A model generated the notes under the pieces. The model had not been told where the DNA came from and ran no database searches. It worked only from the letters and a program-made list of their open reading frames with translations. Source: an uncultured bacterium (GTDB lineage: Bacteria; Edwardsbacteria; AC1; EtOH8). From it: a stretch of 64,000 nt of DNA. The stretch covers positions 29,584-93,583 of the forward strand of contig CAZFJC010000009.1 of the NCBI GenBank assembly GCA_964518765.1, read 5' to 3'. Position numbers and translations under genes: made by a program. Of this stretch, positions 8,392-48,417 are shown in pieces (within the stretch, counting starts at the first letter, position 1; each line of letters begins with the position of its first letter).

Positions 8392-8420
8392 ATTATAAAA
8401 GCAATATTCCTGGTTGTCAA
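8392..8420 (-). promoter_or_regulatory. sigma70-like promoter TTGACA-N17-TATAAT (minus strand) just upstream of the PstS-like gene
   Basis: Exact consensus hexamers with 17-nt spacer; implies a very short leader. Confidence 0.4.
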
Positions 8421-8494
8421 GAGAAAATCATGCCTATTTTTATCGGTCCGCCGAAGACCGGGCTCCGGGCCGGGATGGGCCAAAAACACGGTAA

Positions 8495-8523
8495 TTGACA
8501 TGAGGCTATAAAGTTGGTATACT
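8495..8523 (+). promoter_or_regulatory. sigma70-like promoter TTGACA-N17-TATACT for uvrA
   Basis: Consensus -35, near-consensus -10, 17-nt spacer, about 90 nt upstream of the uvrA ATG. Confidence 0.5.
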
Positions 8524-11435: not shown

Positions 11436-11445
11436 TCGATCCCAA

Positions 11446-11491
11446 TAAAAACAGAGAGCTCCGCTTTAAGATGGAGTTCTCTCTGTTTTTT
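11446..11491. terminator. bidirectional rho-independent terminator between convergent uvrA and queG
   Basis: Stem ACAGAGAGCTCC / GGAGTTCTCTCTGT flanked by an A-run and TTTTTT. Confidence 0.7.
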
Positions 11492-11500
11492 CTTATGTTA

Positions 11501-13548: not shown

Positions 13549-13563
13549 TTGCCGTTCCCGCCC

Positions 13564-14439
13564 TCAGCTCCCGACGGCCATCGGCAGGGTGAAGCTGATG
13601 CCCGTGCCCTCGCCCACCCGGCTCTTGACCGATATCCTACCACCATGCGCCGTCACGATGGCCTTGACGATGGACAGCCCCAGACCCATCCCGGTCTGGC
13701 GCCTGGCGGCATCGGTGCTTTCCACCTGGAAGAAGCGGTCGAAGATCCTGGGAATGGCTTCCTCGGGGATGCCGATGCCGGTGTCTGTAACCACGATTAC
13801 CACCTGTCCCTCGGCGGGGCTGGCCTCGGCCGTTACCCTTATGATTCCCTTCTCGGTGAACTTGATGGCATTCACCAGCAGGTTATCCAGCACCTGGGCG
13901 ATGCGGCCCCGGTCGGCGTTGACGGCGACATCCTCTGCCACCTCGGCGACGGCCTCGAGCCCCTTCCTCTCCAACATCACCCTCTGCCCCCCCAGCACCT
14001 CATCTACCAAGGGCTTGAGCGGGAACGGCTCTGGGTCCACCGTCAGCTTGCCGGACTCCAGCCTGGTGAAATCCAGCAGGTCCGAGATCTGCCGGTGAAG
14101 CTTCTTAAGGCTCCGCGACATAGCATCCACCGCCCTGGCCTGCTCGTCGGTGAGCGGCCCCAGCTTGCCGCTCTGCAGGTACTCGTTATATCCTAGCAGG
14201 ATGGTCAGAGGGGTCTTCAGCTCGTGGGAGACGGTGCCGATGAAGTCGCTCTTGAGGCGGTCTAGCTCCAAAAGCTCCAGGTTGGACTGGTTGAGCCGAT
14301 CGTAGGCCGCTGACATGTCCTCCAGCTCCCTCTCTAGCCTGTCCAGCCTGGCCCTCAGGGCGTCGCCTTCTTGAGGCCGGGGATCGGCGGGCCCACTTCC
14401 GCCTGAAGCGACATTTGAATTGGGTATACCTTTCCTCAT
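13564..14439 (-). CDS. soluble sensor histidine kinase with only a coiled-coil N-terminus (no sensor or TM domain)
   Basis: H-box VSHELKTPLT; N, G1, G2 boxes (DTGIGIP, GLGLSIV); no TM segment. Confidence 0.9.
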   Translation of the reverse strand: MRKGIPNSNVASGGSGPADPRPQEGDALRARLDRLERELEDMSAAYDRLNQSNLELLELDRLKSDFIGTVSHELKTPLTILLGYNEYLQSGKLGPLTDEQARAVDAMSRSLKKLHRQISDLLDFTRLESGKLTVDPEPFPLKPLVDEVLGGQRVMLERKGLEAVAEVAEDVAVNADRGRIAQVLDNLLVNAIKFTEKGIIRVTAEASPAEGQVVIVVTDTGIGIPEEAIPRIFDRFFQVESTDAARRQTGMGLGLSIVKAIVTAHGGRISVKSRVGEGTGISFTLPMAVGS

Positions 14440-15792
14440 CTATTTCGCTCCCGGCCCTTGGGCCAGCCTTTTCAGCCTGAGCCTTATCCGGCGCAAACCT
14501 TCCCAGATGCGGCCCAGAACCTCCCTCTCCGCCCCGGGAAACTTGATGATAATCTCGGGGAAATCGTCATTGCCCAGGTGGTCCGGCGGACTTTTGGGCT
14601 CCTCCCTGGCCTCCCGCAGGCATAGGGCGTGCTCGGCCATCTGGTTGAACTCGCGGCAGACGTTCTCCGCCTTCAGCCTCAGGCTCCTAGCCTGATCTTC
14701 CCTGACGCTGGCCGCCAAGCTTTCGCCGCCATCGGCCGCGGATTCGCCCCCAAACCGGTGCAGCTCGTACTCCTCGATATTGGACGAAAGCATCTCCACC
14801 AGGCTCCCGAAGTACCGGAAGCGGAACTGCAGGGCTCCAGCCAGGTCGCCCCTGGCCTCGTGGTTGTCGGCGAACTCCTGGTAGAGGGACCGCAGAACGT
14901 TCTGGTCTCCCAGCTTCTCTGCTAGGGGCAGGGCGTGTTCGGCATACTCCAGGGCGGTGTCCAGCTCGTTGGTCAGGTTCTTGAGCTTGGCCAACAGGGT
15001 CATAACGTAGACCTCCATGACGGCGTTGCCGCCGTCGACCGCCAGGTCCATGGCCTTCATCAGGCATTCGTAAGATTGGTTGTATTCTCCGGAGTCGCGG
15101 TGGAGGTTGGCGATGTTGATCCAGCTGTGCACCTGGGAGAAGCGGTCTCCTATCTGCTGGCGGATGGCCAGGCTTTCCTTGAGGTGCTCCATGGCCCCCT
15201 GCCGGTCCCCCAGCGTCTTCATACATAGCGCGATGTTGCTCAGAGCGTGGGCCACGTTGCGGCTGTCCCCGACCCTCTCCAGGATCTCCAGGCTCCGCTG
15301 GAAGTGCTCCAGGGCCTTTTCGTTGTCGTCCAGGCTCCGGAAGGTCAGCCCGATATTGTTGATGACATAGGCCCGGATCATCTCGTCATCCGAACCAGCT
15401 AGGATCTCCAGCGCCCTCTGGAAGTGCTCCAGGGCTACCCCCAGGGCCCCCATCCTGGTGTAGGCCAGCCCGATGTTGTTCAGACACCTGCCGGCCTCGC
15501 GGGCATCCCCCAGCTCTCGATACATGGCCAGGGCCTGCAGGCCGCAGCTGACCGACCGGGGATAATCCCCCAGCTGCTCGTATATGGCGCCTGTTATCCT
15601 GGTGGCCGAGGCCAGGCTCTGGCTGAGCTGTAGCCTTTGGCTGAGCTGGGACGCCTTCTCCGCCTGGGCCAGGGCCTGAATAGGGTCGGTGCTCTGGTAG
15701 AGCCCGGCCAGTTCGATCAGCAGATCGGCCCGCTCCGGCGAATCGGGAAGGTTTTCGAGGATTGCTTGGATTTCCTGTATTCGGTTTGACAC
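14440..15792 (-). CDS. cytoplasmic TPR-repeat protein, translationally coupled to the histidine kinase
   Basis: N-terminal LPDSPERADLL motif shared with the two flanking TPR paralogs; at least 8 TPR-like repeats; stop abuts the HK start. Confidence 0.8.
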   Translation of the reverse strand: MSNRIQEIQAILENLPDSPERADLLIELAGLYQSTDPIQALAQAEKASQLSQRLQLSQSLASATRITGAIYEQLGDYPRSVSCGLQALAMYRELGDAREAGRCLNNIGLAYTRMGALGVALEHFQRALEILAGSDDEMIRAYVINNIGLTFRSLDDNEKALEHFQRSLEILERVGDSRNVAHALSNIALCMKTLGDRQGAMEHLKESLAIRQQIGDRFSQVHSWINIANLHRDSGEYNQSYECLMKAMDLAVDGGNAVMEVYVMTLLAKLKNLTNELDTALEYAEHALPLAEKLGDQNVLRSLYQEFADNHEARGDLAGALQFRFRYFGSLVEMLSSNIEEYELHRFGGESAADGGESLAASVREDQARSLRLKAENVCREFNQMAEHALCLREAREEPKSPPDHLGNDDFPEIIIKFPGAEREVLGRIWEGLRRIRLRLKRLAQGPGAK

Positions 15793-15794
15793 TG

Positions 15795-17342
15795 CTAGTT
15801 GGCGTGTTTTTTTGCTTTGGTTTCCATTACCAATAAAGCACGCTGCTCCCAGTATGTCAGCCCCATGGATCGGAATTCCTCAGCCGATCGGTTGAGCTGC
15901 TTGTTCGCTTCTTCTTCATCGCCACACCTTGCCAGCATGGTCCCCCATCTCAATATAACGTGCGCTGCCAGGTAAGGCCGTTGACATGAACGGTACAAGC
16001 TGGCTGCCTGGCTGTAACATTCGCCGGCTCCGGCGGCCTCGCCGTTGTGTTCATTATAGATTCCCTGGGCTTCGAACCATCTGGCCTGTTTATATGGCGA
16101 GCCAGAGCCGACGGCCTCATCCACCCCCATCCAAATCTCCTCGCGGGCTGTCGCCTGTTCGCCTAGGTGGATCCTGGCTATGGCCAGAAAGCGCTTGGCC
16201 TCATCCTTTATCGGTGAAGTATCACGCATTCCAACAAGCCGCAACGCCTTCTCAAAGGATCCTTTGGCGGCGGCATAGTCGCCCTTGACCATCTGGGCCT
16301 CCCCTTTCATGAGAAGATAGCCTGCGGTCTGCTCATCTCCTCCCTTGTCTTTTATGATCTTTTCGGCTTCCTCCAGGATTTCCAGGGCAGCAGCCCCATC
16401 GCCCTTCATACAGAACAGCTTTCCCCGGGCCGCAATGTTTTCCGCCTCTTCCTTACGGAACCCCATTTGGCGGAAAAGGTCTCGCGACTGCTCATATGAT
16501 GACATGGCCCCGTCGATCCGGCCTAGGCAGGTCAGAATGTTCCCGATGCCGTTCAGGCTGAAGGCTTGACCATGGATGTCCCCGATATGCCTCTGCAAAC
16601 TCAAAGCGCGTTCGAATAGGGAAAGGGCTTGCTTCAGCAGTTCCTGGTCCTGTAGTATTATCCCTAAGTAGTACAGACATTTCGCCTGCCCCCCGATGTT
16701 GCCGATCTGCTCGTGCAGATACAGGGAACTCTCGAACAGCTTCTGTGCCTCATGGCTGTTCCCCAGCTCGTACTGGCTGGCGCCCATATTGTACAGGGTG
16801 GAAGCCTCGCCCAGCCGGTCATTCAGCCGTCGCCTTATATTCAGCGATTCCCCGTCGCATTCGTCCGAAAGCCGGTGTTCCCCGCGGCAAAAGTGAATCA
16901 TGCCGATGTTGTGCAAAGCCATGGCCACGTTCCGCTCGTCACCCAGGCTTTGGAACAACTCTTTGGATCGTTGCAGGGTTTGCATGGCGTCATCAAACAT
17001 CCTCCGGTCCTTGAGGATGACGCCCAGGTTGTTCAGGCAGGTTGCCTGGCCGTATTTGTCGCCGGACTTCTGCCTGAGTATTAGGGCGCGCTCTATATGT
17101 CGTCGCGACTGGTCGAATTCGCCGACGTTATAGAGCACGGTCCCGATGCAGTTGAGGCTGGCTGCCTCCCGGTCTTCTTTGTTCAATACCTGGGCTACTT
17201 TTAGGCTTCTTTTGGCCTCGGCCAGGGCCCTTCTACTTTCCCCGGTGATTTTCAATACTTCCGCGATTCCTATCAGCAGGCCATGGAAAACCTCAGCCTG
17301 ATCAGATCTCCCCCGGAATCGATCTTCTCCTTTCGTGTTCAT
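15795..17342 (-). CDS. cytoplasmic TPR-repeat protein (515 aa)
   Basis: Repeated LxNxGxxxxxxGxxxxA TPR_12-like units; no signal peptide. Confidence 0.8.
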   Translation of the reverse strand: MNTKGEDRFRGRSDQAEVFHGLLIGIAEVLKITGESRRALAEAKRSLKVAQVLNKEDREAASLNCIGTVLYNVGEFDQSRRHIERALILRQKSGDKYGQATCLNNLGVILKDRRMFDDAMQTLQRSKELFQSLGDERNVAMALHNIGMIHFCRGEHRLSDECDGESLNIRRRLNDRLGEASTLYNMGASQYELGNSHEAQKLFESSLYLHEQIGNIGGQAKCLYYLGIILQDQELLKQALSLFERALSLQRHIGDIHGQAFSLNGIGNILTCLGRIDGAMSSYEQSRDLFRQMGFRKEEAENIAARGKLFCMKGDGAAALEILEEAEKIIKDKGGDEQTAGYLLMKGEAQMVKGDYAAAKGSFEKALRLVGMRDTSPIKDEAKRFLAIARIHLGEQATAREEIWMGVDEAVGSGSPYKQARWFEAQGIYNEHNGEAAGAGECYSQAASLYRSCQRPYLAAHVILRWGTMLARCGDEEEANKQLNRSAEEFRSMGLTYWEQRALLVMETKAKKHAN

Positions 17343-18388
17343 GATTGACTATCCCTTTCGGGTTCGCTCTCTCCTCCCCACCCGCCCTGCTGCCTCAAGT
17401 CACGTTCCATCCGCTCGGCCATCGCCAGGAAGCTCTCAGCCTTGGCCCCGTGGCCCATCTGCCTCCAGGCATCAGCATACGCCTTTTGTATAGTAATTAG
17501 AAGCCTCTTATCCCCCAATCCCGCGCTCTGGGCGTTGGCCATGTCTAGCACCTCCAACGCCTCCTCGGCCTTGCCGTCGGCCAGCATCAGGGTGGCGGTG
17601 CTGGTTAGGGCCGATACCTCGGTCTCCAAGTCCCCCACCTCCCTGGCCATTTTGATGCATTTTTCCCACTCGTCCATGGCCTGCACCGGGTCGCCCATAT
17701 CTCGATAGATGTTACCGGCCACGTGGTGGGCCGAGGCCGCCCCGGCCTTGTCACCGTACTCCATCATGATTTTAGCCGCCCCCAGGCTGTTTTCTAAGGC
17801 CGGCTCGAAATCGCCCGATTCCCGGTAGAGGTCGGCCAGGTTGACCATGGCTCCGGCAATGAACCGCTGTTCCCCTAACTCCTGGTATCCCTCCAGCCCT
17901 TGGAGGAAGTACTTGAGGGCGCCCTGGCTGTCTCCCATATATTGGTGGACGATTCCCAGGTTGTTTAAGGCCGAGGCCGCCAGCAGCTTGTCACCTATCA
18001 TGTTTGCGACCATTTGGACGTGCTGGTAGCTCTCGGCCGCCTTCCGGTAGTCCCCTAGGTGCCGGTGGATGCAGGCGATCTGGTTCTCCATCCGGCAGGC
18101 CCTCGCCTCCTCGCCCAGTTTGCGCAGCAGGCCCAGGGATTCCAGCCCGTGCTTCAGCGCCTCCCGGTGGCGGGCCAGCACTATCTCGCAGAAGCTTAGT
18201 ATGCCCAGGCCGTAGGCCCTCCCCATCTCATAGTCCAGGCGCTCCGAGGCTGCCAGCGATTCCCGGCACAGCTCGGCCGCCTCGGCCGGCCGGCTGTCCG
18301 AGAGTTCGGCCGCCATCTTGGTCATCAGGTCGGCCTTCTCCGGCGAGTCCGGCATGGCCGACAGTTTCTGCTGGAGCTCCTTGTCCAT
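17339..18388 (-). CDS. cytoplasmic TPR-repeat protein, paralog of 12532..13548
   Basis: MDKELQQKLSAMPDSPEKADLM N-terminal motif; collinear similarity to the 12532..13548 protein. Confidence 0.8.
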   Translation of the reverse strand: MDKELQQKLSAMPDSPEKADLMTKMAAELSDSRPAEAAELCRESLAASERLDYEMGRAYGLGILSFCEIVLARHREALKHGLESLGLLRKLGEEARACRMENQIACIHRHLGDYRKAAESYQHVQMVANMIGDKLLAASALNNLGIVHQYMGDSQGALKYFLQGLEGYQELGEQRFIAGAMVNLADLYRESGDFEPALENSLGAAKIMMEYGDKAGAASAHHVAGNIYRDMGDPVQAMDEWEKCIKMAREVGDLETEVSALTSTATLMLADGKAEEALEVLDMANAQSAGLGDKRLLITIQKAYADAWRQMGHGAKAESFLAMAERMERDLRQQGGWGGESEPERDSQS

Positions 18389-37496: not shown

Positions 37497-39821
37497 CTAT
37501 GATCCGTCTGCTTTTCGGTTTCCGGGATAAGACATTAGCGATAAGGCCGTCACCTGCCCCAGGGCCAGCCCGCCGTCGTTCGACGGAACCTGATGGTGGA
37601 TGAGCACGTGGTATCCGTTAGAACGGAGCCTCTCCCAAAGCCTCTCCAGCAGCAGGCGGTTCTGGAAGACCCCGCCGGACAGGGCCACGGTCCTGCATCC
37701 GGTACGTAATTTTATATTATCGCACATGGCTGCGGCAAAGTCAACGACAGTGTTCTGAAACCTGGCGGCGCAGACCGCGGTCGGGGTCGCATTTCCCATG
37801 TCGGCCGCCAGATCCCCCCAAAGCCTTTCCAGCTTGACCTGCCACGGGCCGGCGGCGGCGTCCAGGATGTCGTACCCGTACGACTCCCGGCATCCCTCGT
37901 CGGCCGCCGCCTCCAGGGCCATGGCCGCCTGGGCTTCGAAGCTTATATGGCGGCAAAGCCCCAGAGCGGCGCTGGCCGCATCGAAGAGCCGGCCCAGGCT
38001 GGAGGTCCAGGCCAGGTTGGCCCCACTCTCTATTTGCCTTCGGACCGCCTCAAGCTCGACCTCCGGGATCCCGGCCAGATATCCTGGGCGGCCAGGGCCT
38101 TTCAGGCTATGATGATAGGCGGCTGCTATCCGCCAGGGGTGTCTGATGCAGGCCTCGCCCCCGGGCAGCGGAAGATACTCTAAATGGCCGAGCCTGTCGA
38201 TCCTCTCTCCGTCGAAGTGAAGGAACTCCCCCCCCCAGATCCGGCCGTCGGCTCCGTAGCCGGTGCCGTCGAAGATCACTCCGATAGCCGGCCCCTGGTG
38301 TCCGTTGTCGGCCAGGACGCTCAGCAGGTGGGCGTGGTGGTGCTGGATAGCGGCCGCCTCAATCCCCAGGCTTTTGGCCCAGCGGGTGGTCAGGTAGTCG
38401 GGATGCAGGTCGTGGGCCACTGCCTGCGGCTCGATCCTGAACCAACGGCGGTACTTCTGGTACATCTCCTCTAGAAATTCCATGGTCTCCAGGCTGTCGG
38501 CCTCGCCAATATGCTGGCTGAGGAAGGCGGTTTGCCCCTGGGCCAGGCAGAAGGTGTTCTTCATCTGTCCGCCCACCGCCAGGCAGGGGACGACGGACCT
38601 GGGCAGCGGCACCGGGTTGGGGGCGTATCCCCGCGAATGCCTGACTATCTGGGCTACAACGTCTGCGCCTTCCTCCCTGCGGCCGCTGGTTTGAAAAACG
38701 ATGGAGTCGTCGTTGCGGTTGACGATCTCTCTGTCGTGCATCAAAAACAAGCCGGCGATTCCTCCCAATCTCTCCAGGGCCTGTCGGTTGTCGGCTGTGA
38801 TCGGCAAGTCGAGATCATTGCCTGAGGTCATCACCAATATCCAGCCCTTGGCGTCGATCTCCTCCAGCTTGCGGAACAGCAGGTGATGGAGTGGTGTATA
38901 GGGCAGCATCATGCCTATATAGCGGTTTCCCGGTGAGACTTGCTGCCCCGGTCCCCAGCCATCCTCCTTCCGGCAGAGGACGATGGGCGCTTGGGGCGAA
39001 CCCATGAGCTTTGCCTCGTGCTCGGTGATAAGGCAGGCGCGGCGGGCGGATGGCAGCAAACCGGCCATCAGGGCCAGCGGCTTGTGGGGCCGTCGCTTGA
39101 GCTCCCGGAGCCAGGCGACGGCCTTCTGGTTTTCGGCGTCGCAGCAGAGATGGAAGCCTCCCAGCCCCTTGACGGCGGCGATGCCGCCCCCGGCGACATG
39201 CTCGGCGGCAGCCCTTAGGGCCGCCGCTTGCTCGGCTAAAACCTTGCCGGTGCGGTCGCAGGCCCATATCTTGGGGCCACAAGCCGGGCAGGCATTGGGC
39301 TGGGCGTGGAAGCGCCGGTCGGCCGGGTCCTGGTACTCCCCTAAACATTCCGGACACATGGCGAATGGTGCCATGGTCGTGGCCGAACGGTCGTAGGGAG
39401 TGGCAATGATGATGGATAGCCTGGGCCCGCAGTTGGTGCAGTTGATGAAGGGATAGCCGAATCGCCGGTCGGCCGGATCCTCCATCTCTCTTAGGCAATC
39501 ATCGCAGACGGCGATGTCCGGGGAGATTCTGGTTGCCCCTGGTCCGGTGGCGCTATCTCGGATAACGAAGCCCTGGCGCCCTCCCGGGGTAATCTCGTCG
39601 ACCGAAATGGAATCGATCACCGCCTGCGGCGGCCTGCCATTGCGAAGCACCTGTTCAAAGCTTTCCAGCCGGCCCTGTTCGCCCTCGACCTCGATAGTAA
39701 CCCCGGCGCTGTCGTTCTCCACGAAACCTGCCAGGCCGTTCTCCTTGGCCAGCCGGTAGACGAACGGTCTGAAGCCCACCCCTTGGACTATCCCTTTGAT
39801 ATGAAATCGCTTCGCCTTCAT
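37497..39821 (-). CDS. hypF: carbamoyltransferase HypF
   Basis: Acylphosphatase domain, two CxxC zinc-finger pairs, YrdC-like and Kae1-like domains; start at MKAKRFHIKGIVQGVGFRP fits the promoter position. Confidence 0.9.
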   Translation of the reverse strand: MKAKRFHIKGIVQGVGFRPFVYRLAKENGLAGFVENDSAGVTIEVEGEQGRLESFEQVLRNGRPPQAVIDSISVDEITPGGRQGFVIRDSATGPGATRISPDIAVCDDCLREMEDPADRRFGYPFINCTNCGPRLSIIIATPYDRSATTMAPFAMCPECLGEYQDPADRRFHAQPNACPACGPKIWACDRTGKVLAEQAAALRAAAEHVAGGGIAAVKGLGGFHLCCDAENQKAVAWLRELKRRPHKPLALMAGLLPSARRACLITEHEAKLMGSPQAPIVLCRKEDGWGPGQQVSPGNRYIGMMLPYTPLHHLLFRKLEEIDAKGWILVMTSGNDLDLPITADNRQALERLGGIAGLFLMHDREIVNRNDDSIVFQTSGRREEGADVVAQIVRHSRGYAPNPVPLPRSVVPCLAVGGQMKNTFCLAQGQTAFLSQHIGEADSLETMEFLEEMYQKYRRWFRIEPQAVAHDLHPDYLTTRWAKSLGIEAAAIQHHHAHLLSVLADNGHQGPAIGVIFDGTGYGADGRIWGGEFLHFDGERIDRLGHLEYLPLPGGEACIRHPWRIAAAYHHSLKGPGRPGYLAGIPEVELEAVRRQIESGANLAWTSSLGRLFDAASAALGLCRHISFEAQAAMALEAAADEGCRESYGYDILDAAAGPWQVKLERLWGDLAADMGNATPTAVCAARFQNTVVDFAAAMCDNIKLRTGCRTVALSGGVFQNRLLLERLWERLRSNGYHVLIHHQVPSNDGGLALGQVTALSLMSYPGNRKADGS

Positions 39822-39851
39822 GTTGAAAATCCGCCTAGTGGCGGATTCATA

Positions 39852-39880
39852 ATTATACGACTGTCCAAACAAAATTTCAA
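39852..39880 (-). promoter_or_regulatory. near-consensus sigma70 promoter TTGAAA-N17-TATAAT for the hypFCDE operon; the leader contains the palindrome CCGCCACTAGGCGG
   Basis: Hexamers with exact 17-nt spacing, about 30 nt upstream of the hypF ATG; 14-nt palindrome 39831-39844 lies in the 5' UTR. Confidence 0.55.
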
Positions 39881-39946
39881 CCGGGTCAGGAAGGTTATAT
39901 CCGCCCCTTGCATAAGCGCCATGTTTGTGGTTTTTTGGGGGGAATT

Positions 39947-41278
39947 ATGCAAGAAAGGCGCTCACCGACAGCCCCTCCGGGCGAGCCGGCGCGCAGCCAG
40001 CGGATCTCCATCCTCGAGGGCTCGCTGGCCTCGGTCCACATTGCCGTGACCCTGAGCTCCCTGGTGACCGCCTACGCCCTGATGCTCGGGGCCAACGACT
40101 TCCACCTGGGCCTGCTCTCGGCCGTGGGCGCGGCCGGCTCGCTGGGGGCGCTGGCCGGCAACTGGGCCGCTGAACTGGCCGGCGGGCGAAAGCGGATGGT
40201 GGTGGCCGCCGCCGTGTCCGGCCGGTCGCTGTGGGCCGTCCTCTGCGTCCTGCCGTACCTGCCGGTGCTCCCGGGCTGGAGGCTGCCGGCGTTCTTCCTC
40301 ACCATACTGTTATCCAACCTGCTGGCCAACGCCGCCAACAACGGATGGCTTTCCTGGATGACCGACCTGGTGCCCCTGGAGCAGCGGGGGTGGTTTTTTG
40401 GGCGGCGCAACACCATCCTGGGCACGGTCTCCATGGCCACCACCTTCGCCTCGGGCAAGGCCTACGACTGGTTTAAGGCGGTGGGAAGGCAGGAGCAGGG
40501 ATTCGTCGTCATCATCGGCCTGGCCGTCCTGTTCGCCCTGGCCTCGGGGCTGATGCTGTCCAGGCAATGGGACCCGGGTTCGCGACGGAACCAGTCTCCC
40601 CTACCACACCGCATGTTCCGGACGGCTTTCGCCGACAGTAGGTTCCGTCCCCTGCTCCTGTTCTTCATCTTCTGGTCCCTCTCCACCTCGGTGGCCGGCC
40701 CATTCTTCGGCGCCCATATGATAAAGAACCTGCGCATGCCCTTGGGCATCATCGCCGTCTACTCCATCATCGCCGGCGTCGTCAACCTAGTCTTCCAGCC
40801 CCTCTGGGGCCGGGCCATCGACCGCATCGGCAACAAGCCGGTGTTGGTGTTCAACATGCTGGGCATCTTCTTCCTGCCCCTGTTCTGGCTGTTCGCCGGC
40901 CCTGACTTCTACCTTCCCATCTGGATCGACGCCTTCCTGACCGGCATCTTCTGGCCCGTCTTCGGCCTAGCCGCCTTCAACCTGCTGCTGCTTTCGGCCC
41001 CGGAAAGCGACCGCCAATCCTACCTGGCGGTACAGAGCGTCTGCACCGGCCTCAGCGTCTTTGCGTCCTCGCTGGCCGGTGGGGCCTTGGCCAAGTGGCT
41101 GGGCGGGGTCCATCTGGCCTTCCTGGGCCAGAGATTGGTAAATTTCCACCTTCTTTTCGCCCTGTCCTCCCTTTTGCGGTTGGCGATGCTGCCGGTAGTC
41201 CCGCGCCTGCCCGAGAAAAAGGCGGGGACGGTGGGGGCGCTGCTGGACCTTTTGGCAACAAGGCCTCTCAGGCCTTGA
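39947..41278 (+). CDS. MFS transporter (12 TM)
   Basis: Multiple hydrophobic helices; MFS-like R/K loop motifs; GGGGGG-type SD before the ATG at 39947. Confidence 0.8.
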   Translation: MQERRSPTAPPGEPARSQRISILEGSLASVHIAVTLSSLVTAYALMLGANDFHLGLLSAVGAAGSLGALAGNWAAELAGGRKRMVVAAAVSGRSLWAVLCVLPYLPVLPGWRLPAFFLTILLSNLLANAANNGWLSWMTDLVPLEQRGWFFGRRNTILGTVSMATTFASGKAYDWFKAVGRQEQGFVVIIGLAVLFALASGLMLSRQWDPGSRRNQSPLPHRMFRTAFADSRFRPLLLFFIFWSLSTSVAGPFFGAHMIKNLRMPLGIIAVYSIIAGVVNLVFQPLWGRAIDRIGNKPVLVFNMLGIFFLPLFWLFAGPDFYLPIWIDAFLTGIFWPVFGLAAFNLLLLSAPESDRQSYLAVQSVCTGLSVFASSLAGGALAKWLGGVHLAFLGQRLVNFHLLFALSSLLRLAMLPVVPRLPEKKAGTVGALLDLLATRPLRP

Positions 41279-41501: not shown

Positions 41502-42026
41502 CTACTGCAAACTGCGGTTGCCCCCCTCGGTCTGCACTACCCAATCGAAGGAGAGGGTGATGGAGGTATACTTGCCGTTCTGATTGAGCCCGATGATGGA
41601 TAACCGCCCGTAGTGGGGCACGGCGTCGGTCTTGACGAAATAGCTCTGCCCCAGGACCGCCAGAGCCGAGGTGTTATAGCCGTCGTCCGGAGCCGTGGTT
41701 CCGCTTCCCTCTTGTATGCCGTTGGCCTCGATGAGGCAATTCTGCTGGTCCGGGGATACTATGCTTATCTTGCCGTAATTGTATCCCCCCGAACTGAAGG
41801 TGTAATCGGACCTCCATCCGTTTGTTGCCGAGATGGTCCTGCTGGCCGTTCCGGTGATGACCGTGGTCGCCGGCGCCTCCACCGGGCTCTTGGAGCAGCC
41901 GGCCAGCAGCAAGCTCAGGGCCAACCCGACGGCTACGACAGCGAGTATGCCTAAAAAGGTCGCCCAGGCCCTCCTTCTCCTGGCCGGTGGTCGGGGATAA
42001 CTGCTATTTTCTAATAGTGTTATCAT
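41502..42026 (-). CDS. lipoprotein of unknown function
   Basis: TM/signal segment with lipobox LLLAGCS; Ser/Thr/Gly-rich. Confidence 0.5.
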   Translation of the reverse strand: MITLLENSSYPRPPARRRRAWATFLGILAVVAVGLALSLLLAGCSKSPVEAPATTVITGTASRTISATNGWRSDYTFSSGGYNYGKISIVSPDQQNCLIEANGIQEGSGTTAPDDGYNTSALAVLGQSYFVKTDAVPHYGRLSIIGLNQNGKYTSITLSFDWVVQTEGGNRSLQ

Positions 42027-42060
42027 TGATTGCTTCGATCTCCCTCAAATATTATCTCCG

Positions 42061-43566
42061 TCAGAACTTCCATTCCCACGCGGCCTTCATGCCGCGGAAG
42101 GACGGCTCGAAGCGGCAGAAGCCGCCGGAGCAAACCAGCCCACCCTTGGTCTGCCCGACCGAGAGTTTCAGATGATACCTGTCCTGCCCCCAGGCCAGGT
42201 CGATCCCGACCTCACCCCACCTCCTCTGGTTTTCGTACTCCGGCAACCTCTTGGTACAGAGCTCGGCCTCGCCATAAATATAGGCCAAGCCCATAGGCGA
42301 CCATTTGGCCTGGGCGGTCAGGCTGTAGAACTCGAGGTCCTGATCGATGTAATGGTTGCGGTACTGGTCGCCCCCCAGTCCCAGCATGATGGATCGGCCC
42401 TGGCCGTAGGTGAGGATGGCCTCGGCCGAACCGCCTCGGAAATAGCGCCGCTTGATGTCCGGTTGGAGGTTGCGCTCCAGGCGCGACCGCGCCTCGGCCA
42501 CCAGGCTAAGGCCGGCGCTGGCCTGCCATTTGGCCTCCAGGTAGTAGTCCCGCCACTTATAGCGCCCCAGCGAATCTCCGGGGAACTGCGGCAGGTAGGC
42601 CCAGCGGTACTCATGGCGGGAACGGGCCCAGGAGTGGCTGGCGATTATGTTCAGTCCGGACCAGGGCGAGGCGGTGGCCTCGGCCTGGAAGCCCTGCTCG
42701 TCGTAGCCTGAATTCAGAAGCCCGCCGTCGCGGTTGGCCGGAGGCGGTGTGTTGAACCCGGCGTTGAAATCCCGGTAGTCCTTGGCCTCAAGCGCCAGTC
42801 CCAGCCCGGGCAGGGCCAGCGAGACGGAGGCGAACCCGGCCTGGCCCTTGATGTCGTCGGCCTCGGTCCAGCCGGCGGTGGCGTCTACCAGCCGGCCATA
42901 GGTGTGACGGACGTCGAACTCGGCGTAGGCCTCCAGCGGTCCGAGGCCCGCCCTGATGGTGCCCCCGAATATCTCCTCCACCGGCATGCCCAGCACCCCG
43001 GCCTGACCCGGCAGGGCGGCGTTGGATCGCAGATAGACAGCCCCAACGCGCCATCCCCTGACAATGCCGATCTCGGCCTGTCCCCCGGCCACCATCCTGG
43101 ATGTGTCCCTGACGGCGTACTCCCTAAGCCACCCCCCCAGTAGCCTCAGCTCAAAAAGGTCGCCCAGGCCGGCCGAGAAGTCGGCGCCCTCCAGGTCCCG
43201 GTCGGTGCCGGTGCGGCGCTCCTCCACGCAGTTAAGAGCCAGGCCCTTCCCCAGCACCGCCGGGAAATCCCCGACGGTGGCCGAGCCCAGCTTGGTGTTA
43301 AGCTTCAGGCTCTTTTTCGAGATGCCCAGATACCGGGCCGTGTCCTCCCAAGCCTCATGGTCCAGCTCGTATCTCAGGAAAGCCTCTATCTCCAGGTTGT
43401 TGTTCATAGTCTCCCAGGCCCGCAGGTCCAGGGCCTGCGCCAGGCTCATGGCGTTGCCGGGCTGGGCCGACCACAGTTTTGACTGGCTGGCGCCGGAAAG
43501 GTCCCAGGCCAGGGCCGCCGGTCCCGCGGCCAGGACGGCTGAAAGAAAAACAAGCTTTCTCATCAC
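42061..43566 (-). CDS. predicted outer-membrane beta-barrel protein
   Basis: Signal peptide; alternating amphipathic strands rich in Y/W/G; C-terminal ...WEWKF with terminal Phe. Confidence 0.55.
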   Translation of the reverse strand: MMRKLVFLSAVLAAGPAALAWDLSGASQSKLWSAQPGNAMSLAQALDLRAWETMNNNLEIEAFLRYELDHEAWEDTARYLGISKKSLKLNTKLGSATVGDFPAVLGKGLALNCVEERRTGTDRDLEGADFSAGLGDLFELRLLGGWLREYAVRDTSRMVAGGQAEIGIVRGWRVGAVYLRSNAALPGQAGVLGMPVEEIFGGTIRAGLGPLEAYAEFDVRHTYGRLVDATAGWTEADDIKGQAGFASVSLALPGLGLALEAKDYRDFNAGFNTPPPANRDGGLLNSGYDEQGFQAEATASPWSGLNIIASHSWARSRHEYRWAYLPQFPGDSLGRYKWRDYYLEAKWQASAGLSLVAEARSRLERNLQPDIKRRYFRGGSAEAILTYGQGRSIMLGLGGDQYRNHYIDQDLEFYSLTAQAKWSPMGLAYIYGEAELCTKRLPEYENQRRWGEVGIDLAWGQDRYHLKLSVGQTKGGLVCSGGFCRFEPSFRGMKAAWEWKF

Positions 43567-44723
43567 GGCACCTCCACGTGGAACCTGGCGGCCGCGCTGT
43601 CGGATGGAGACGATTGCGGCTTGACCGTCAACACCGCTGTGCTGCGGCCGGAACCGTAGGGGGTAATATGAACCTCAAGGCTGGTTAACGAGTCGCTGGC
43701 TGGTATGTACCATTTCAGGGGAAGGGGGTAACAGAACTGCCGGTCGCAAATAGTGGCCAAGAGAGTCTCCGGGACCGCCAGGGATTGTGGCAGGTCGATT
43801 ATCATAGTGTCCGCCATATTGCCTATATTCCTGATGGTGAAGGGAAAGGATACCAGGCTGTTGGCCTGTCCGTCCAGTAGGGTGTCGGCCGCCGCCAGCT
43901 GAATGGCGTATTCAGCTTGGAATAGCTTTACCCAGGCCGACTGCAGCAGCTCGCCGGTGGTTTCGTCTTGCACTATGGCCGTCAGGCCCAGCCTCTCCTG
44001 CACCCATGACGGCTCCAAGGCGATCGAGCCGTTCCTGGTATGCTGTGACCCGGGCTCCAGCGAAAAGACCTCCCCGGGGTTGTCGGGGTCCAGCCTCCTG
44101 GCCACCAGGCGGTGAAGGCTAACGCCGTTCGGCGCGGCGTAGCTGATGGAATCCTCCACCAGGACCAGCAGCAGCCTCAGGCCGCCAATACGGTCTTCGA
44201 TCTCGGAGCTGACGGTAACGCTGTAGGACACCGAGGCCGCACCCAGGCCGCCGTTTAAAGTGATGCTCACCGGGCTGCTTTTCCGGAGCCTGGCGATTGC
44301 CGCCGAGCGATATTCGGATAGTAGGTTGGGCACCGCCCCGGCCACCCGGGCCACGCCGTCACAAACGAACACCGGCGGGGCCGACACCCCGTAGTGCGCG
44401 AAGCGCTGTTCTGTCTGGGCCGTCCCGAAGGGGTCCAGGGGCGATCCGAAGGTCGGATGGTACTCGATCAGAGTCAATGAATCGCCCAGCTCCTCCGCCA
44501 GAGACTCGGCCGCCTGGTCGGCGGCCGGACAGTTGGTGCACCAGGTGGCGGTGAACATCTCGACGACAACCCTCCTGGGCACCCCCACCTCGGCATCCCC
44601 GGTAGCCGCCACCGGCAGTCTCTTGCCACAGGCAGCCAGAACAAGAAGGCAGAGGGCAGAAACCAGAAAAGGTCCGTTCGCTTTCTGCGATTTTGCCTTG
44701 GATGATCGTGATTTTCCCATCAT
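43563..44723 (-). CDS. thioredoxin-fold (Omp28-like) lipoprotein, WCTNCP motif
   Basis: Lipobox LAACG; VVVEMFTATWCTNCP...GDS region paralogous to the two downstream T9SS proteins. Confidence 0.6.
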   Translation of the reverse strand: MMGKSRSSKAKSQKANGPFLVSALCLLVLAACGKRLPVAATGDAEVGVPRRVVVEMFTATWCTNCPAADQAAESLAEELGDSLTLIEYHPTFGSPLDPFGTAQTEQRFAHYGVSAPPVFVCDGVARVAGAVPNLLSEYRSAAIARLRKSSPVSITLNGGLGAASVSYSVTVSSEIEDRIGGLRLLLVLVEDSISYAAPNGVSLHRLVARRLDPDNPGEVFSLEPGSQHTRNGSIALEPSWVQERLGLTAIVQDETTGELLQSAWVKLFQAEYAIQLAAADTLLDGQANSLVSFPFTIRNIGNMADTMIIDLPQSLAVPETLLATICDRQFCYPLPLKWYIPASDSLTSLEVHITPYGSGRSTAVLTVKPQSSPSDSAAARFHVEVP

Positions 44724-45250
44724 TCGGCCTGTCCTTTCTTACTGGGCTCGCAACTAGCGCTGTCTGGCTCGGACCGTTTGATCAGTTTTCTTATCTCACC
44801 TTCCAGCAGCGCCTCGTCGCCCTCCTTGAAGCCGAAATGGCTCCAAACAATCCTCCCCCCCTTGTCCAGGATGAATGATCCCGGAACATCCCTTAGCCCG
44901 AACTTGCGCATGGCCTGCTGCTCTGGGTCCATGGCCACCGGGAAGTCGTGGCGGTTGCCGGCCAGAAAGGCTTTGACCTTGCCCTGGTCCTTGGCCTCGT
45001 TGACACAGATACCCAGAAAGCCGATGCCGCTGTCGGCGTAGGCCTCATAAAGCTTCTGGAAATGCTTGAGCTCTCGGCAGCAGGGCTTGCACCAGGTGGC
45101 CCAGAAGCTGACGACCAGGGGGCGGCCCTGAAAACGATCGGACAATTCCAGCCGCTTGCCGTCCAGATCCTTCAGCCTGACGCTCAGCCCCTGGCCGGGG
45201 GCGGCAGCCGCCATCGCCATCATGGCGGCCAGTGGGAAGAGTCTTCTCAT
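44720..45250 (-). CDS. TlpA/ResA-like periplasmic thiol-disulfide oxidoreductase
   Basis: Signal peptide; VVSFWATWCKPC thioredoxin CxxC motif. Confidence 0.85.
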   Translation of the reverse strand: MRRLFPLAAMMAMAAAAPGQGLSVRLKDLDGKRLELSDRFQGRPLVVSFWATWCKPCCRELKHFQKLYEAYADSGIGFLGICVNEAKDQGKVKAFLAGNRHDFPVAMDPEQQAMRKFGLRDVPGSFILDKGGRIVWSHFGFKEGDEALLEGEIRKLIKRSEPDSASCEPSKKGQAE

Positions 45251-45320
45251 CTCGTTCTCCGTTTAATTTCGGGGCGCCGTTCCCCGCGGATCGGCGCCCC
45301 TTCTTTTTATAGAACGGTTA

Positions 45321-47291
45321 TTACCGGATTATGGCCAGCTTCCTGGTGGCGGTGTAGTTCCCGGTCATCAGTCGGTAGAAATAGACCCCATTGGCCACAG
45401 GTTTTCCCGATCTGTCCTTTGTGTCCCAGACCACCGTATGCGTGCCTTCCGGCCTCCCGCCCTCGAACAAGGGTCTGACCAATTTGCCAGATACGTCAAA
45501 TACTCCTAGCGACACGTGGGTGGATGCTGTCAGGCTGTAAGAGATCTTCACGACGCCCCTGGCCGGGTTGGGGCTTGCGGGCATCAGCATCACCCTCGGC
45601 CGCAAAGGCGTCGGCGGCTCGCCCTCGACCCCGGTCGTCAACTCGGAATACCTGATCTCGTTGACGTTGTAGACCTCCTTGGTGGCCATGTTCTGCACGT
45701 AGACGATGAAGAACAGTCGGCCCTTGTTCCAGTTCGCGTGCAACGTGAAATCTATGTCCTGGGAGGACAGTCCGTTGCCTATGGTCATCGGGGTCCCCGA
45801 GGCGCTGGGCAGGATGGTCCTGACGAACTCCCGCATGGAGTCGCAGTGGGGGTTGGCCGTGGGCGACGGCCAGACGCAATACTTGCTCTCCTCGGTGATG
45901 ACCATCCGGAGGTTGCCGTTTATCGGGACGCCGCCGGGGTAATCGATCTCCGCGTGGATGCTGCCGGTGTTCCCGTTCTGGGTCCCGCTGAGGGTGATGT
46001 CGAAGGGCGATCTGTAGGCTTTGCGCTCGTTGAACTTGGCCCGGTGATCGCTGTACACCGACGACCAGCCGCCGACTATCTTGTCGCCGCCGTCCCAAAC
46101 CGTGGTCGGGTATCCTCCGATGTCCCCGTAGAAGTTCATGATGTTGGCCGATTGCACCGTGTAAAAGCTGTCCTGGCTGGTGCTGGGATGCAGGCCGGCC
46201 ACGATTATCGAATCCCCCGATTCCTCCCTGAGCTGTTCCAGCGAGTTCTGGACGTACGGGCAGTATCCGCACCACTGGGCGGTGAAGTCCTCGACGTACA
46301 CCCGGCGGCGGCGGTTGTAGGAGTTGACGTCCGTCTTGGTGGTGTCGTTAGAGGGCACCTGGTCTATGCCCAAGGAAGTGTAGGCGATGACATTGTAGAG
46401 ATTGCCGATGGCCGGGGTCCATGACGGAAAGTCTGCCGTCTGCGTGCCGCCGCTGGCCAGGTCGGTTACCGTTTGGTCCTCCTGGTAAACGGTCACCCCT
46501 GCCGAATCGATCCTCACGGTCGCCGTGAAGGTCTCCGTGTTGCTGCCGTTGTTCTTCACCTCTACCTGGGGCGCCACCGGGTCCATCAGCTGTCCCAGCG
46601 GGGCATTGATCGCCGACACCAACACATCGTGGTCCGCCAGCTGTCCGGTGACCTGGATGTTGTCCAGATACAGCTCGTTGCCGAAGGCGGTATGAGCCCT
46701 GAACAGCACCTTGTTCGTGCCCACCGGAAGGGCGTATCGCTTGGTCGCCCACTGGCCGGCGTTCGGCACGAACTGGCTGGATGTGGCACCGCCTGTGTTC
46801 AGAGGTCCCGTGTACCCCCCCTTCAAACCAATCAGCTTTGTCCAACTTGACCCAGCGTTGCTAGAGGTCCATATGGTGAGTGAATCTACATATTGCGATG
46901 GATTGGTATTATAGGATGCGTAGGCGTGGTCGAATATGAGCGAATCCCCGGCGACCGATGGCCAGAATTCGGTGGTTATCATGTCCTGGGTGCCGGAGCT
47001 GATGTTGTAGAAATCGGCCCGGGCGGCGGCGATTCCTGAGCCGTACCCGCTGCACCCCTCGTAACGGCCCCACAGGGCCGCGCTTCCGGCCAGCGACCAC
47101 CCGGCAGGGGGGAAGATCGCCGGCTCGAAATCCTCGACAAAATTGCCCTTGGGGATGCTGGCGCCTTCCTGTAACGGCGTGAACAGGTCGAACTGACCGA
47201 CAATGCCGTTAACTCGCGCTGGTTTTTCGGCCAAAGCTACCGTTCCGATCATGCCGACCAGCAACAACGCGACCAAACCATTTCTCGTCAT
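45321..47291 (-). CDS. secreted multidomain protein: N-terminal beta-rich domain, CARDB/Ig-like domain, thioredoxin-fold Omp28-like domain (WCGYCP), T9SS C-terminal sorting domain
   Basis: Signal peptide; EDFTAQWCGYCP; C-terminal ...GKPVANGVYFYRLMTGNYTATRKLAIIR is a typical Por/T9SS CTD. Confidence 0.7.
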   Translation of the reverse strand: MTRNGLVALLLVGMIGTVALAEKPARVNGIVGQFDLFTPLQEGASIPKGNFVEDFEPAIFPPAGWSLAGSAALWGRYEGCSGYGSGIAAARADFYNISSGTQDMITTEFWPSVAGDSLIFDHAYASYNTNPSQYVDSLTIWTSSNAGSSWTKLIGLKGGYTGPLNTGGATSSQFVPNAGQWATKRYALPVGTNKVLFRAHTAFGNELYLDNIQVTGQLADHDVLVSAINAPLGQLMDPVAPQVEVKNNGSNTETFTATVRIDSAGVTVYQEDQTVTDLASGGTQTADFPSWTPAIGNLYNVIAYTSLGIDQVPSNDTTKTDVNSYNRRRRVYVEDFTAQWCGYCPYVQNSLEQLREESGDSIIVAGLHPSTSQDSFYTVQSANIMNFYGDIGGYPTTVWDGGDKIVGGWSSVYSDHRAKFNERKAYRSPFDITLSGTQNGNTGSIHAEIDYPGGVPINGNLRMVITEESKYCVWPSPTANPHCDSMREFVRTILPSASGTPMTIGNGLSSQDIDFTLHANWNKGRLFFIVYVQNMATKEVYNVNEIRYSELTTGVEGEPPTPLRPRVMLMPASPNPARGVVKISYSLTASTHVSLGVFDVSGKLVRPLFEGGRPEGTHTVVWDTKDRSGKPVANGVYFYRLMTGNYTATRKLAIIR

Positions 47292-47364
47292 GGTCCCTCC
47301 CCCTTTGTTCTTTGGTTGGTTTTTAAGAGCGGCTTATACGTTGAAAAGATTCATTGCCACCTGA

Positions 47365-48417
47365 TCACTCAAGATGCGTTATCCTGATGATCTGAACCGA
47401 GGAATGGGCTTCGAGGCGGCAAAGGACCATGCCCCGGGGCAAGGCCCTGGCGTTGAAGTGAACCCGGTGCTCCCCGGCCTCCCGCCACCCCAGGTCGATT
47501 CTCCCCAGCCGGCGGCCGTCGATGCCGTAGAAGCCGGCGGTGGCCCATCCCGGCCTGGATACCGAGAACCGCAGGGTGCCCTTATCCCGAAGAGGATTGG
47601 GGTGTATGTCCGCCGACAGGATCCCCCTTGGCCGGGGCCCGGGCGGAGGAACTGAGGTCACCCCGGCCAGCTGGTCCAAGCCTATTCGGGCAGACTGGAG
47701 GATGGCTCCAGCAGGCGCCTTGGCCGCCCCGGCCAACCCCTCGGCCAAGGCCATGAATTCGATCCGCCCCGCAGCCCAGTCCGGTGAGAGCTGGAAGGGA
47801 AAGGCCAAGGAGGTGTCGGCGCCCGGTGCCAGTAGCAGCTGCGGCCCGTCGAAACCCGGCAGCATGCCGCGCAGCACGTCATAGACGCTGTCGCCGCCGC
47901 CCCAGGGGCGGTAGATGGCCCGTTCGATTACGGCCACCCGCAGCCTGGCTATCACCGTGTCGGACGCAGGGTTGGAGGCGACGCAGGTTAGCTGGCCGAT
48001 TCTCTCAGTAGTGTCCGCCCACCCGCCCAGGGCCAGGGCCGCCCCGGGCTCCACTATTTTCCTCTTGTCGAAGGCGTTCCGGTAGCCCCAATAGGTGGCG
48101 GTGTCCGCGTAGTACTGGTCGAATATCCCGTCGAACCAGGTGGTCGGGGTTCCCGTCACCGAGTAATAGGCGGCCAAGGACTCGGCCTCGGGGATCTTGT
48201 AGAGGTCATAGTAGTGGACGCCGACGACGCACAGGGAGTCACCGACCTCGGACTTCAACCGCTCCATGGCTAGGGCCGCCCCCCCGCAGGGCCCGCAGGA
48301 GACGGCGGTGAAGTGCAGCGCCGCCACTTGGCGCAGATCGCCGGCCTGGGCCTGGCTTAAGGACAAAACGGCCATTAGGAGGATGGCGGCCGCGAAGCTT
48401 CCGGCCGATATATGCAT
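47365..48417 (-). CDS. secreted thioredoxin-fold (CGPC) protein with T9SS-like C-terminal domain
   Basis: Signal peptide from MHISAGSFAAAILLMAVLSLSQAQA; FTAVSCGPCGG; C-terminal ...GMVLCRLEAHSSVQIIRITHLE CTD-like. Confidence 0.6.
   Translation of the reverse strand: MHISAGSFAAAILLMAVLSLSQAQAGDLRQVAALHFTAVSCGPCGGAALAMERLKSEVGDSLCVVGVHYYDLYKIPEAESLAAYYSVTGTPTTWFDGIFDQYYADTATYWGYRNAFDKRKIVEPGAALALGGWADTTERIGQLTCVASNPASDTVIARLRVAVIERAIYRPWGGGDSVYDVLRGMLPGFDGPQLLLAPGADTSLAFPFQLSPDWAAGRIEFMALAEGLAGAAKAPAGAILQSARIGLDQLAGVTSVPPPGPRPRGILSADIHPNPLRDKGTLRFSVSRPGWATAGFYGIDGRRLGRIDLGWREAGEHRVHFNARALPRGMVLCRLEAHSSVQIIRITHLE

Follow-up and report, generated by a model that had tools for sequence, protein, structure and literature searches.

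A conserved TlpA-DUF6029-lipoprotein operon associated with HBP35/Omp28-like thioredoxin-fold proteins in uncultured bacteria

Among the described redox systems of the cell envelope, the DsbD/CcdA pathways use TlpA/ResA/CcmG-type proteins to pass electrons to specific envelope clients, and MtrCAB forms a porin-cytochrome conduit encoded in the gene order mtrC-mtrA-mtrB. At the cell surface of Porphyromonas gingivalis, the protein HBP35 is a type IX secretion system (T9SS) cargo attached to anionic lipopolysaccharide (A-LPS); it reduces insulin, and this activity is lost upon mutation of C48 and C51 (PMC2907840, PMC3120885). HBP35 also binds hemin via its C-terminal, non-thioredoxin part and supports growth under hemin limitation (PMC2907840). 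Here, we describe a gene cluster related to HBP35 in a 64,000-nucleotide stretch of DNA from an uncultured bacterium of the Edwardsbacteria lineage (contig CAZFJC010000009.1, positions 29,584 to 93,583; hereafter, the window). The cluster comprises six open reading frames (ORFs), all located on the minus strand at window positions 41502-48417, and encodes three HBP35/Omp28-like paralogs, a TlpA-like protein, an outer-membrane barrel of the DUF6029 family and a small lipoprotein. The contig is metagenomic, and two public assemblies hold identical copies of it.

Since HBP35 has already been described, a T9SS-exported thioredoxin-fold protein is not new in itself. Three features are new with respect to the literature searched: (i) the conserved operon composed of TlpA, DUF6029 and an Omp28/HBP35-like lipoprotein, no description of which was found there, (ii) the versions of this operon with selenocysteine, including T9SS-tagged proteins, and (iii) an invariant cysteine hairpin in DUF6029.

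The TlpA-DUF6029-lipoprotein core

All six ORFs were confirmed with unchanged coordinates. In the direction of transcription, the cluster includes paralog C (350 aa, 47365..48417), paralog B (656 aa, 45321..47291), the TlpA-like gene (176 aa, 44720..45250), paralog A (386 aa, 43563..44723), the DUF6029 gene (500-501 aa, 42061..43566), and an ORF of 174 aa (41502..42026). The stop and start codons overlap by 4 nucleotides at two junctions, TlpA/paralog A (ATGA) and paralog A/DUF6029 (GTGATGA), and the remaining intergenic gaps are 34-73 nucleotides long. Judging by these junctions, paralog A is translationally coupled both to the upstream TlpA gene and to the downstream DUF6029 gene. Promoter and terminator scans of the sequence gave nothing informative, and terminator-like sites were no commoner than in shuffled sequence.

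The TlpA-like gene encodes a putative TlpA/ResA-like periplasmic thiol:disulfide oxidoreductase. The protein exceeds the thresholds of the AhpC-TSA (81.8 vs. 26 bits, 5e-23) and Redoxin (76.3 vs. 26.6 bits, 2.7e-21) families, contains a WCKPC motif at residues 53-57 (45080-45091), and has a hydrophobic N-terminus of the signal peptidase I type that lacks a lipobox. Its scores stay under the equivalog cutoffs, both for ResA (NF002854, 90.4 vs. 170 bits, 1.2e-25) and for TlpA (46.2 vs. 230 bits).

The barrel gene encodes a protein with a signal peptide that passes the Pfam model of DUF6029 (PF19494, 57.1 vs. 27 bits), and remote syntenic homologs also score over this threshold (33-79 bits). In its AlphaFold2 model, which has a mean predicted local distance difference test score (pLDDT) of 76.4, the protein forms a barrel with about 24 strands, ends in Phe, and has no plug domain. 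Foldseek comparison of this model with the PDB returned generic barrels alone (Cir, FimD, BtuB, LptD, and AlgE) and thus no specific assignment; a link of DUF6029 to Wzi-type (polysaccharide) barrels was reported from HHpred (PMC9603273). The most conserved element of the family is KGGLVCSGGxCR-x-E-x-PF, and the family-wide motif KGGLVCSGGFCRFEPSF carries the cysteine pair C479/C484. This C-S-G-G-x-C pair (42115-42132) is invariant and lies in the loop preceding the last strand. The second cysteine is kept in all 49 loci collected below even though it stands outside the main search pattern; together with the arginine and the next glycine, it is also kept in loci collected with a pattern that lacks these residues. 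Because the C-terminal strand of an outer-membrane barrel ends in the periplasm, the cysteine hairpin is predicted to be on the outer side of the membrane or folded into the lumen.

To collect related loci, one genome per species was scanned with a DUF6029 profile and C-terminal motif patterns. The scan returned 49 loci, which by record title belong to metagenome-assembled genomes of TA06/UBP2, Edwardsbacteria, WOR-3, Stahlbacteria, Latescibacterota, Hydrothermia, and one 'Deltaproteobacteria'. The ORFs in all six frames of the loci, each of roughly 16 kb, were searched with the window proteins. Word-indexed homolog searches yielded 17-20 close relatives each, even when started from a divergent 11-sequence DUF6029 profile. 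Of the 43 loci with enough upstream DNA to be assessed, 42 carry a TlpA gene on the same strand that lies immediately upstream of DUF6029 or has only the lipoprotein gene in between; the exception (L048) contains just a fragment of the barrel gene. The TlpA-DUF6029 pair occurs in six or more candidate lineages, among which the identity of DUF6029 falls as low as 20-26%, and no second TlpA homolog was detected elsewhere within these loci. Thus, a family with no prior function gains a context: an obligatory TlpA neighbor and, usually, a nearby lipoprotein with a CxxC or UxxC motif (U, selenocysteine). No mention of DUF6029 in a redox setting was found in the literature searched.

An Omp28/HBP35-like lipoprotein gene adjoins the TlpA-DUF6029 pair in most assessable loci, in one of two arrangements. 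In all nine TA06/UBP2-type loci, as in the window, it separates TlpA from DUF6029; in 23 of the 25 assessable WOR-3-type loci, it is directly upstream of TlpA. Four loci (L025, L040, L052, and L055) have TlpA and DUF6029 without any Omp28-like gene. Around the relatives of paralog A with 71%, 42%, and 40% identity, the gene order is glnA, Omp28-like/CTD genes (CTD, the C-terminal T9SS sorting domain), TlpA, lipoprotein, DUF6029, and a major facilitator superfamily (MFS) transporter gene, and the CTD-bearing paralogs differ in number and architecture. The conserved core therefore consists of TlpA, DUF6029, and the lipoprotein and is independent of T9SS, the T9SS paralogs being accessory.

In 28 WOR-3-type loci, the DUF6029 gene is followed after 110-334 nucleotides by a gene for a NapH/NosR-like membrane polyferredoxin (Fer4_5, 8e-16; TIGR02163, 7e-16), and in 13 of these 28 the next gene encodes a GltD-like NAD(P)H Fe-S flavoprotein (NF009410, 6e-102) with partial similarity to subunits of YgfK-type putative selenate reductases and to the 'dicluster near Sec' family. 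With these genes, the WOR-3-type operon covers predicted redox components of the inner membrane, the periplasm, and the outer membrane. Examples are found at L017:9507-10310 and at L038:9341-10159 and 10134-11720.

The last gene of the cluster encodes a small lipoprotein with a lipobox LAGC that was located by pattern inspection (residues 41-44, 41895-41906) and has no significant Pfam or NCBIfam match. Its homologs adjoin the core in L003 and L016, whereas in L005 and L011 they are found 4-5 kb farther downstream, and the other loci have none; this peripheral protein is only loosely tied to the cluster.

The thioredoxin-fold paralogs and their selenocysteine forms

Alignment of the three CxxC proteins revealed a shared block with the invariant residues F57, T58, A59, C62, C65, G80, D81, S82, and H89, in the numbering of the 386-aa paralog A. 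The active-site block reads FTATWCTNCP in paralog A (CTNC at 44529-44540), FTAQWCGYCP in paralog B (CGYC at 46260-46271), and FTAVSCGPC in paralog C (CGPC at 48286-48297), so that all three window proteins carry Cys-x-x-Cys and not selenocysteine. In BLASTP comparisons, paralogs A and B match at 4e-20 over 224 columns, and a 382-aa form of paralog C matches B at 4e-23 over 306 columns, including the C-terminal tail, and A at 2e-9. By these alignments, the three proteins are paralogs far beyond chance, as had been proposed from their common CxxC...GDS...H block in an earlier note made from the sequence alone.

The three paralogs share an HBP35/Omp28-like module and differ in the domains around it. 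Paralog A has this module at 43914-44591 and an extra C-terminal beta-sandwich domain at 43566-43913; it has no CTD and is instead a predicted lipoprotein, pattern inspection having located a lipobox LAAC at residues 29-32 (44628-44639), in agreement with the earlier note. It matches the Omp28-related selenoprotein model NF045500 (2.4e-19) and Pfam Omp28 (about 3e-5). In paralog B, a signal peptide is followed by an N-terminal beta domain (46617-47228), a CARDB-like domain (46386-46568), the HBP35/Omp28-like module (45624-46325), and a type A CTD (45324-45590). It matches FlgD_ig (35.6 bits), Pfam Omp28 (E 2.7e-5), and NF045500 (1.1e-22). Of the two additional N-terminal regions previously assigned to this protein, the beta domain was recovered, and the CARDB match remained slightly under threshold (20.8 vs. 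22.7 bits, E 4.5e-4). Paralog C, when started at 48417, begins with a plausible signal peptide of the signal peptidase I type, MHISAGSFAAAILLMAVLSLSQAQA/GD, and continues with a thioredoxin-fold and beta-sandwich module of the HBP35/Omp28-like kind (47659-48348) and a divergent CTD-like tail (47368-47616). Curated models match it weakly (Pfam Omp28, E 0.019; NF033782, E 0.0038), and L003 encodes an ortholog in which the motif is the same.

The CxxC domain was modeled as a thioredoxin fold joined to an Omp28-type beta-sandwich, the fold of P. gingivalis Omp28 (2r2c). The core of the model is beta-alpha-beta, and CxxC stands at the N-terminal end of the first helix following strand 1. Pro117, a candidate for the cis-proline that faces the active site in thioredoxin folds, precedes strand 118-121 and is invariant in the three paralogs and in a 19-sequence family alignment. 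The top Foldseek match and the closest solved structure for the paralog module is HBP35 (PDB 5y1a). By sequence, the family profile finds thioredoxin 1fo5 (6.8e-8) and HBP35 (8.2e-6), and PDB thioredoxins match paralog B at 1.7e-4. The profile alignment with HBP35 spans VLEVFTAEWCGYCP, a block equal to that of paralog B; the HBP35 motif is FTAEWCGYCP. On the strength of these predicted fold and profile matches, we assign the three paralogs to the HBP35/Omp28/DUF1223 superfamily. The thioredoxin fold suggested for the CxxC blocks in the earlier note agrees with the model; its proposed similarity to Omp28 holds at the level of fold and of sub-threshold family matches, the curated Omp28 cutoffs not being reached.

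The note had also ascribed T9SS tails to two of the paralogs. Paralog B passes both CTD thresholds (TIGR04183, 36.7 vs. 23 bits; PF18962, Por_Secre_tail, 33.5 vs. 27 bits). The Pfam and NCBIfam CTD models missed the tail of paralog C. This tail can be aligned to the paralog B CTD and was recognized by a custom CTD hidden Markov model (HMM) built from 37 unrelated CTDs of related loci, which covers the extreme C-terminus of paralog C over the full model (E 4.7e-6), matches paralog B at 1.4e-28, and hits no other ORF of the window. As these 37 segments indicate, CTD-bearing ORFs are frequent in the related loci. Directly upstream of TlpA and DUF6029, two loci (L056:3615-6165 and L051:955-1653) encode between one and three 232-aa proteins in tandem that have a T9SS CTD but neither CxxC nor a recognizable N-terminal family.

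The superfamily has many members: searching with a profile built from the three window domains yielded 9,901 cluster representatives at E<=1e-3, and 2,892 at E<=1e-10. A CTD forms the end of 72 of the 149 nearest representatives, and the N-terminus resembles a lipobox in about 26 of the 149. Five database representatives (P0093, P0115, P0124, P0138, and P0180) start just past the expected CxxC position, which fits the expectation that gene callers may stop at a selenocysteine UGA codon, and P0063 is an SxxC variant.

Selenocysteine forms were observed in the operon itself. In WOR-3-type loci (L017-L047), a lipoprotein gene of about 240 codons (...FCS(D/E)AP...) lies directly upstream of TlpA, and in 23 of 25 assessable loci its sole in-frame stop falls exactly at the first cysteine of CxxC (...VLAELFTEDG-TGA-GFC...). 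The TGA codon was read directly in 22 loci; in L019, the stop is at the same position and its codon was not read. Representative genes are L026:6360-7073 and L047:6480-7190. Protein conservation runs on both sides of the TGA, and an 8-bp hairpin with a GGA loop starts 10 nucleotides past it and shows compensatory changes in 5 of 8 pairs, which fits a bacterial selenocysteine insertion sequence (SECIS) element. We thus read the codon as a predicted selenocysteine (UxxC). An alternative genetic code was considered and rejected: TGA is an ordinary stop in the surrounding frames, and recoding is limited to one site followed by the covarying hairpin.

The Cys- and Sec-lipoprotein families (Sec, selenocysteine) align by hhalign with 99.8% probability (E 3.7e-28); the 235 aligned columns start at the signal peptide and extend through the beta-sandwich. 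Against NF045500, the Sec-lipoproteins score 23-33 bits, far under the cutoff, and therefore form a separate branch outside that model. TGA at the same active-site position (RVVVCEELYSEG-TGA-PTC) was further found in six CTD-bearing Omp28-like ORFs of five loci: L017:3330-4317, L030:3270-4256, L032:3270-4294, L033:2080-3094 and 3280-4267, and L035:5340-6399. With a signal peptide, an Omp28-like domain, a CTD, and the TGA codon, these are candidate T9SS-exported selenoproteins. Searches of the literature for Omp28-type selenoproteins, T9SS-exported selenoproteins, and type IX secretion in WOR-3 returned nothing relevant, and a preprint on selenoprotein families does not include an Omp28/HBP35-like family.

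Interchange of cysteine and selenocysteine at one position is a classic mark of a redox-catalytic residue. The interchange at the first CxxC position leads us to read the CxxC of the window proteins as an active site, and the thioredoxin motif of the HBP35/Omp28 superfamily is, from the sequences, very probably catalytic. In some bacteria of the Fibrobacterota-Chlorobiota-Bacteroidota (FCB) group, selenoproteins seem to be sent to the outer membrane and, via T9SS, onto the cell surface, which raises the question of how such sites stay reduced extracellularly. As a separate observation, the linker past the lipidated cysteine is conserved (CS(D/E)APxVxFPEPTxR in the Sec forms and CGK(R/D)LP in the Cys forms; window positions 44580-44627) and might serve in sorting or touch the barrel.

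A possible envelope thiol relay and its alternatives

We favor, with moderate confidence, the interpretation of the cluster as a cell-envelope thiol:disulfide oxidoreductase relay that ends in thioredoxin-like proteins of the outer membrane and the surface. In such a relay, TlpA would act as a soluble periplasmic reductase, recharged by an inner-membrane donor encoded outside the window, and would keep the CxxC of the outer-membrane HBP35/Omp28-superfamily lipoprotein reduced. The lipoprotein would work with or at the plug-less DUF6029 barrel encoded immediately downstream, and the two other paralogs, presumably exported by T9SS and displayed at the surface in the manner of HBP35, would reduce or isomerise disulfides of extracellular or surface substrates. 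We infer in this scheme the redox activity itself, the electron donor and the direction of electron flow, a physical complex of the barrel with the lipoprotein and TlpA, and the surface exposure. A transfer of reducing equivalents across the outer membrane by the core trio would be a new envelope function. In a bolder form of the relay, which we regard as speculative and rather unlikely, TlpA, the plug-less DUF6029 barrel with its invariant cysteine hairpin, predicted to face outward, and the CxxC/UxxC lipoprotein would be a conduit for thiol/selenol-disulfide reducing power across the outer membrane, organized on the plan of MtrCAB with disulfide exchange as the means of electron transfer, fed in WOR-3 by the NapH- and GltD-like inner-membrane proteins and recharging T9SS-displayed thioredoxin-like proteins, some of them selenoproteins. 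If true, this would place a DsbD-like function at the outer membrane and give the first means of keeping catalytic Cys/Sec residues reduced outside a diderm cell.

Several points weigh against the relay, which is drawn from sequences and predicted structures. None of the three paralogs reaches the family cutoffs of PF11551 (24.1, 24.5, and 15.2 vs. 34.9 bits), NF033782 (40.1, 44.2, and 16.5 vs. 150 bits), or NF045500 (81, 69.9, and 12.5 vs. 200 bits), and the putative CTD of paralog C is recognized by the custom model alone. A Pfam scan of the 30 other window ORFs detected neither T9SS machinery, so that export is deduced from the sorting domain, nor CcdA/DsbD and cytochrome maturation genes. 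The NapH- and GltD-like genes of WOR-3 are absent both from the window ORFs (phmmer) and from the TA06/UBP2-type loci. The hairpin of DUF6029 (residues 476-487) is modeled at pLDDT below 50, and the lipoprotein may face either the periplasm or the outside. The DUF6029 scan was seeded with a motif, so members without it, for example in Bacteroidota, were possibly missed, and their context could differ. Finally, the physiological role of the HBP35 thioredoxin domain was itself left unresolved (PMC2907840).

The alternatives differ in how much of the cluster they join. Two proteins of the core, the lipoprotein and TlpA, could act in the periplasm alone and reduce what comes in via a DUF6029 channel, either a small oxidized compound (of sulfur or selenium, or a disulfide) or disulfide-bonded peptides, with the T9SS paralogs being independent. 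This explanation, which we hold to be doubtful, would suit a large, plug-less barrel that resembles transport barrels only generically and has the Wzi-type link reported from HHpred (PMC9603273), the four loci with the TlpA-DUF6029 pair and no Omp28-like gene, and the similarity of the WOR-3 GltD-like protein to selenate reductase subunits and to the 'dicluster near Sec' family. It sits poorly with the T9SS-tagged paralogs, which in Cys and Sec forms recur beside the core in distant lineages and are therefore argued to be part of the system, and with a barrel whose most conserved element is a cysteine-pair hairpin, predicted on the outer side, and not a typical porin constriction. The paralogs might also be chiefly heme- or ligand-binding surface proteins or adhesins, a role put forward for HBP35 and Omp28, in which CxxC is minor or structural and to which TlpA and DUF6029 are unrelated. 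The closest solved structure, HBP35, indeed binds hemin by its non-thioredoxin part (PMC2907840); replacement of the first cysteine by selenocysteine in homologs at the same operon position is unexpected for a structural or dispensable residue, and the strict adjacency to TlpA and DUF6029 is hard to explain were the processes unrelated, which together make this account improbable.

Even less credit is given to barrel maturation, where TlpA and the lipoprotein would serve as a private reductase or isomerase for a C479-C484 bond of DUF6029. LptD, which needs Dsb enzymes for its disulfides, offers a parallel, and both the invariant cysteine pair and the essentially obligatory TlpA-DUF6029 pairing would be accounted for. 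A C-x4-C hairpin, however, scarcely needs its own isomerase, still less a selenoenzyme together with NapH- and GltD-like genes, and the T9SS-exported paralogs would be left unexplained. That unrelated envelope genes merely stand side by side in this lineage retains hardly any probability. The housekeeping flanks of the cluster and the unstable linkage of the 174-aa lipoprotein would be expected under such a chance neighborhood, but the overlapping stop and start codons and a gene order kept at 20-40% protein identity across several candidate phyla speak against it, and it is already contradicted by the synteny.

The favored relay modifies the earlier note in some respects. The note had placed a TlpA-type protein, an outer-membrane barrel, and a lipoprotein on one strand with the paralogs, and the AhpC-TSA/Redoxin, DUF6029, and LAGC lipobox matches substantiate these assignments. 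It had suggested that the whole could be a system exported by T9SS; this applies to the accessory paralogs and not to the core TlpA, DUF6029, and lipoprotein, which do not depend on T9SS. Its statement that the module is not a described one is borne out for the core operon and has to be narrowed for the T9SS thioredoxin cargo, which is known as HBP35. The metal-handling role that it had offered was dropped, as no metal-binding family or motif was found. The note had named three outcomes that would speak against it, and in each case the contrary was found: the CxxC blocks are modeled with a thioredoxin fold, the CTD models match at least one protein, and the genes are kept together well beyond close relatives.

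Neighboring genes and relation to known systems

Housekeeping genes flank the cluster. On one side are glnA, argR, and thiL; on the other are hypF and a gene for an MFS transporter. The latter side (37497-41278) encodes HypF, a hydrogenase maturation protein, and the divergently oriented transporter; the position of the MFS gene is kept in six related loci, and relatives go on with hypC, hypD, and hypE. Farther away, the window contains four tandem TPR_12 paralogs within 12532-18388 (12532-13548, 14440-15792, 15795-17342, and 17339-18388) with a histidine kinase gene interleaved among them (13564-14439). A TonB, ExbD, ExbD, ExbB gene set at 2714-8501, followed by genes for a tetratricopeptide repeat (TPR) protein and a PBP_like_2 periplasmic binding protein, has no adjoining TonB-dependent receptor gene.

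Of the known proteins, HBP35 (PG0616/PGN0659, PDB 5y1a) is the closest to the window paralogs. It shares the FTAxWCxxCP-type site, the N-terminal thioredoxin module with a beta-sandwich, and, with paralog B, the T9SS sorting domain, whereas the sequence identity is only about 14%. HBP35 is the product of a single gene, which we take to adjoin ahpC and not TlpA or DUF6029. The present cluster has three paralogs: one is a lipoprotein encoded inside a TlpA/DUF6029 operon, and another has extra N-terminal domains. The window proteins also differ from the Omp28 family (PF11551, NF033782) and the Omp28-related selenoprotein (NF045500), whose cutoffs they do not reach and in place of whose selenocysteine they have cysteine. 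To DUF1223 (PF06764; PDB 2axo, Atu2684), a proteobacterial family without T9SS or lipoprotein context whose function is not established, the score is 24.6 against a Pfam cutoff of 30.7.

As in the pathways that lead from DsbD/CcdA to TlpA/ResA/CcmG, the TlpA-like protein of the cluster is a standard secreted thioredoxin-fold reductase with WCxPC. Unlike in those pathways, its predicted client is an HBP35/Omp28-type lipoprotein of the outer membrane, and its partner gene encodes an outer-membrane barrel; the cluster is neither a cytochrome c maturation nor a copper-chaperone system, and WOR-3-type operons carry NapH-like and GltD-like genes instead of CcdA/DsbD. With MtrCAB, the parallel is one of analogy: both combine an outer-membrane redox lipoprotein with a redox protein of the periplasm and a large barrel that lacks a plug, and the WOR-3-type order of lipoprotein, periplasmic protein, and barrel mirrors mtrC-mtrA-mtrB. 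The two systems share no homology, and nothing places a component of the present one inside the barrel; the redox centers are Cys/Sec pairs here and hemes there.

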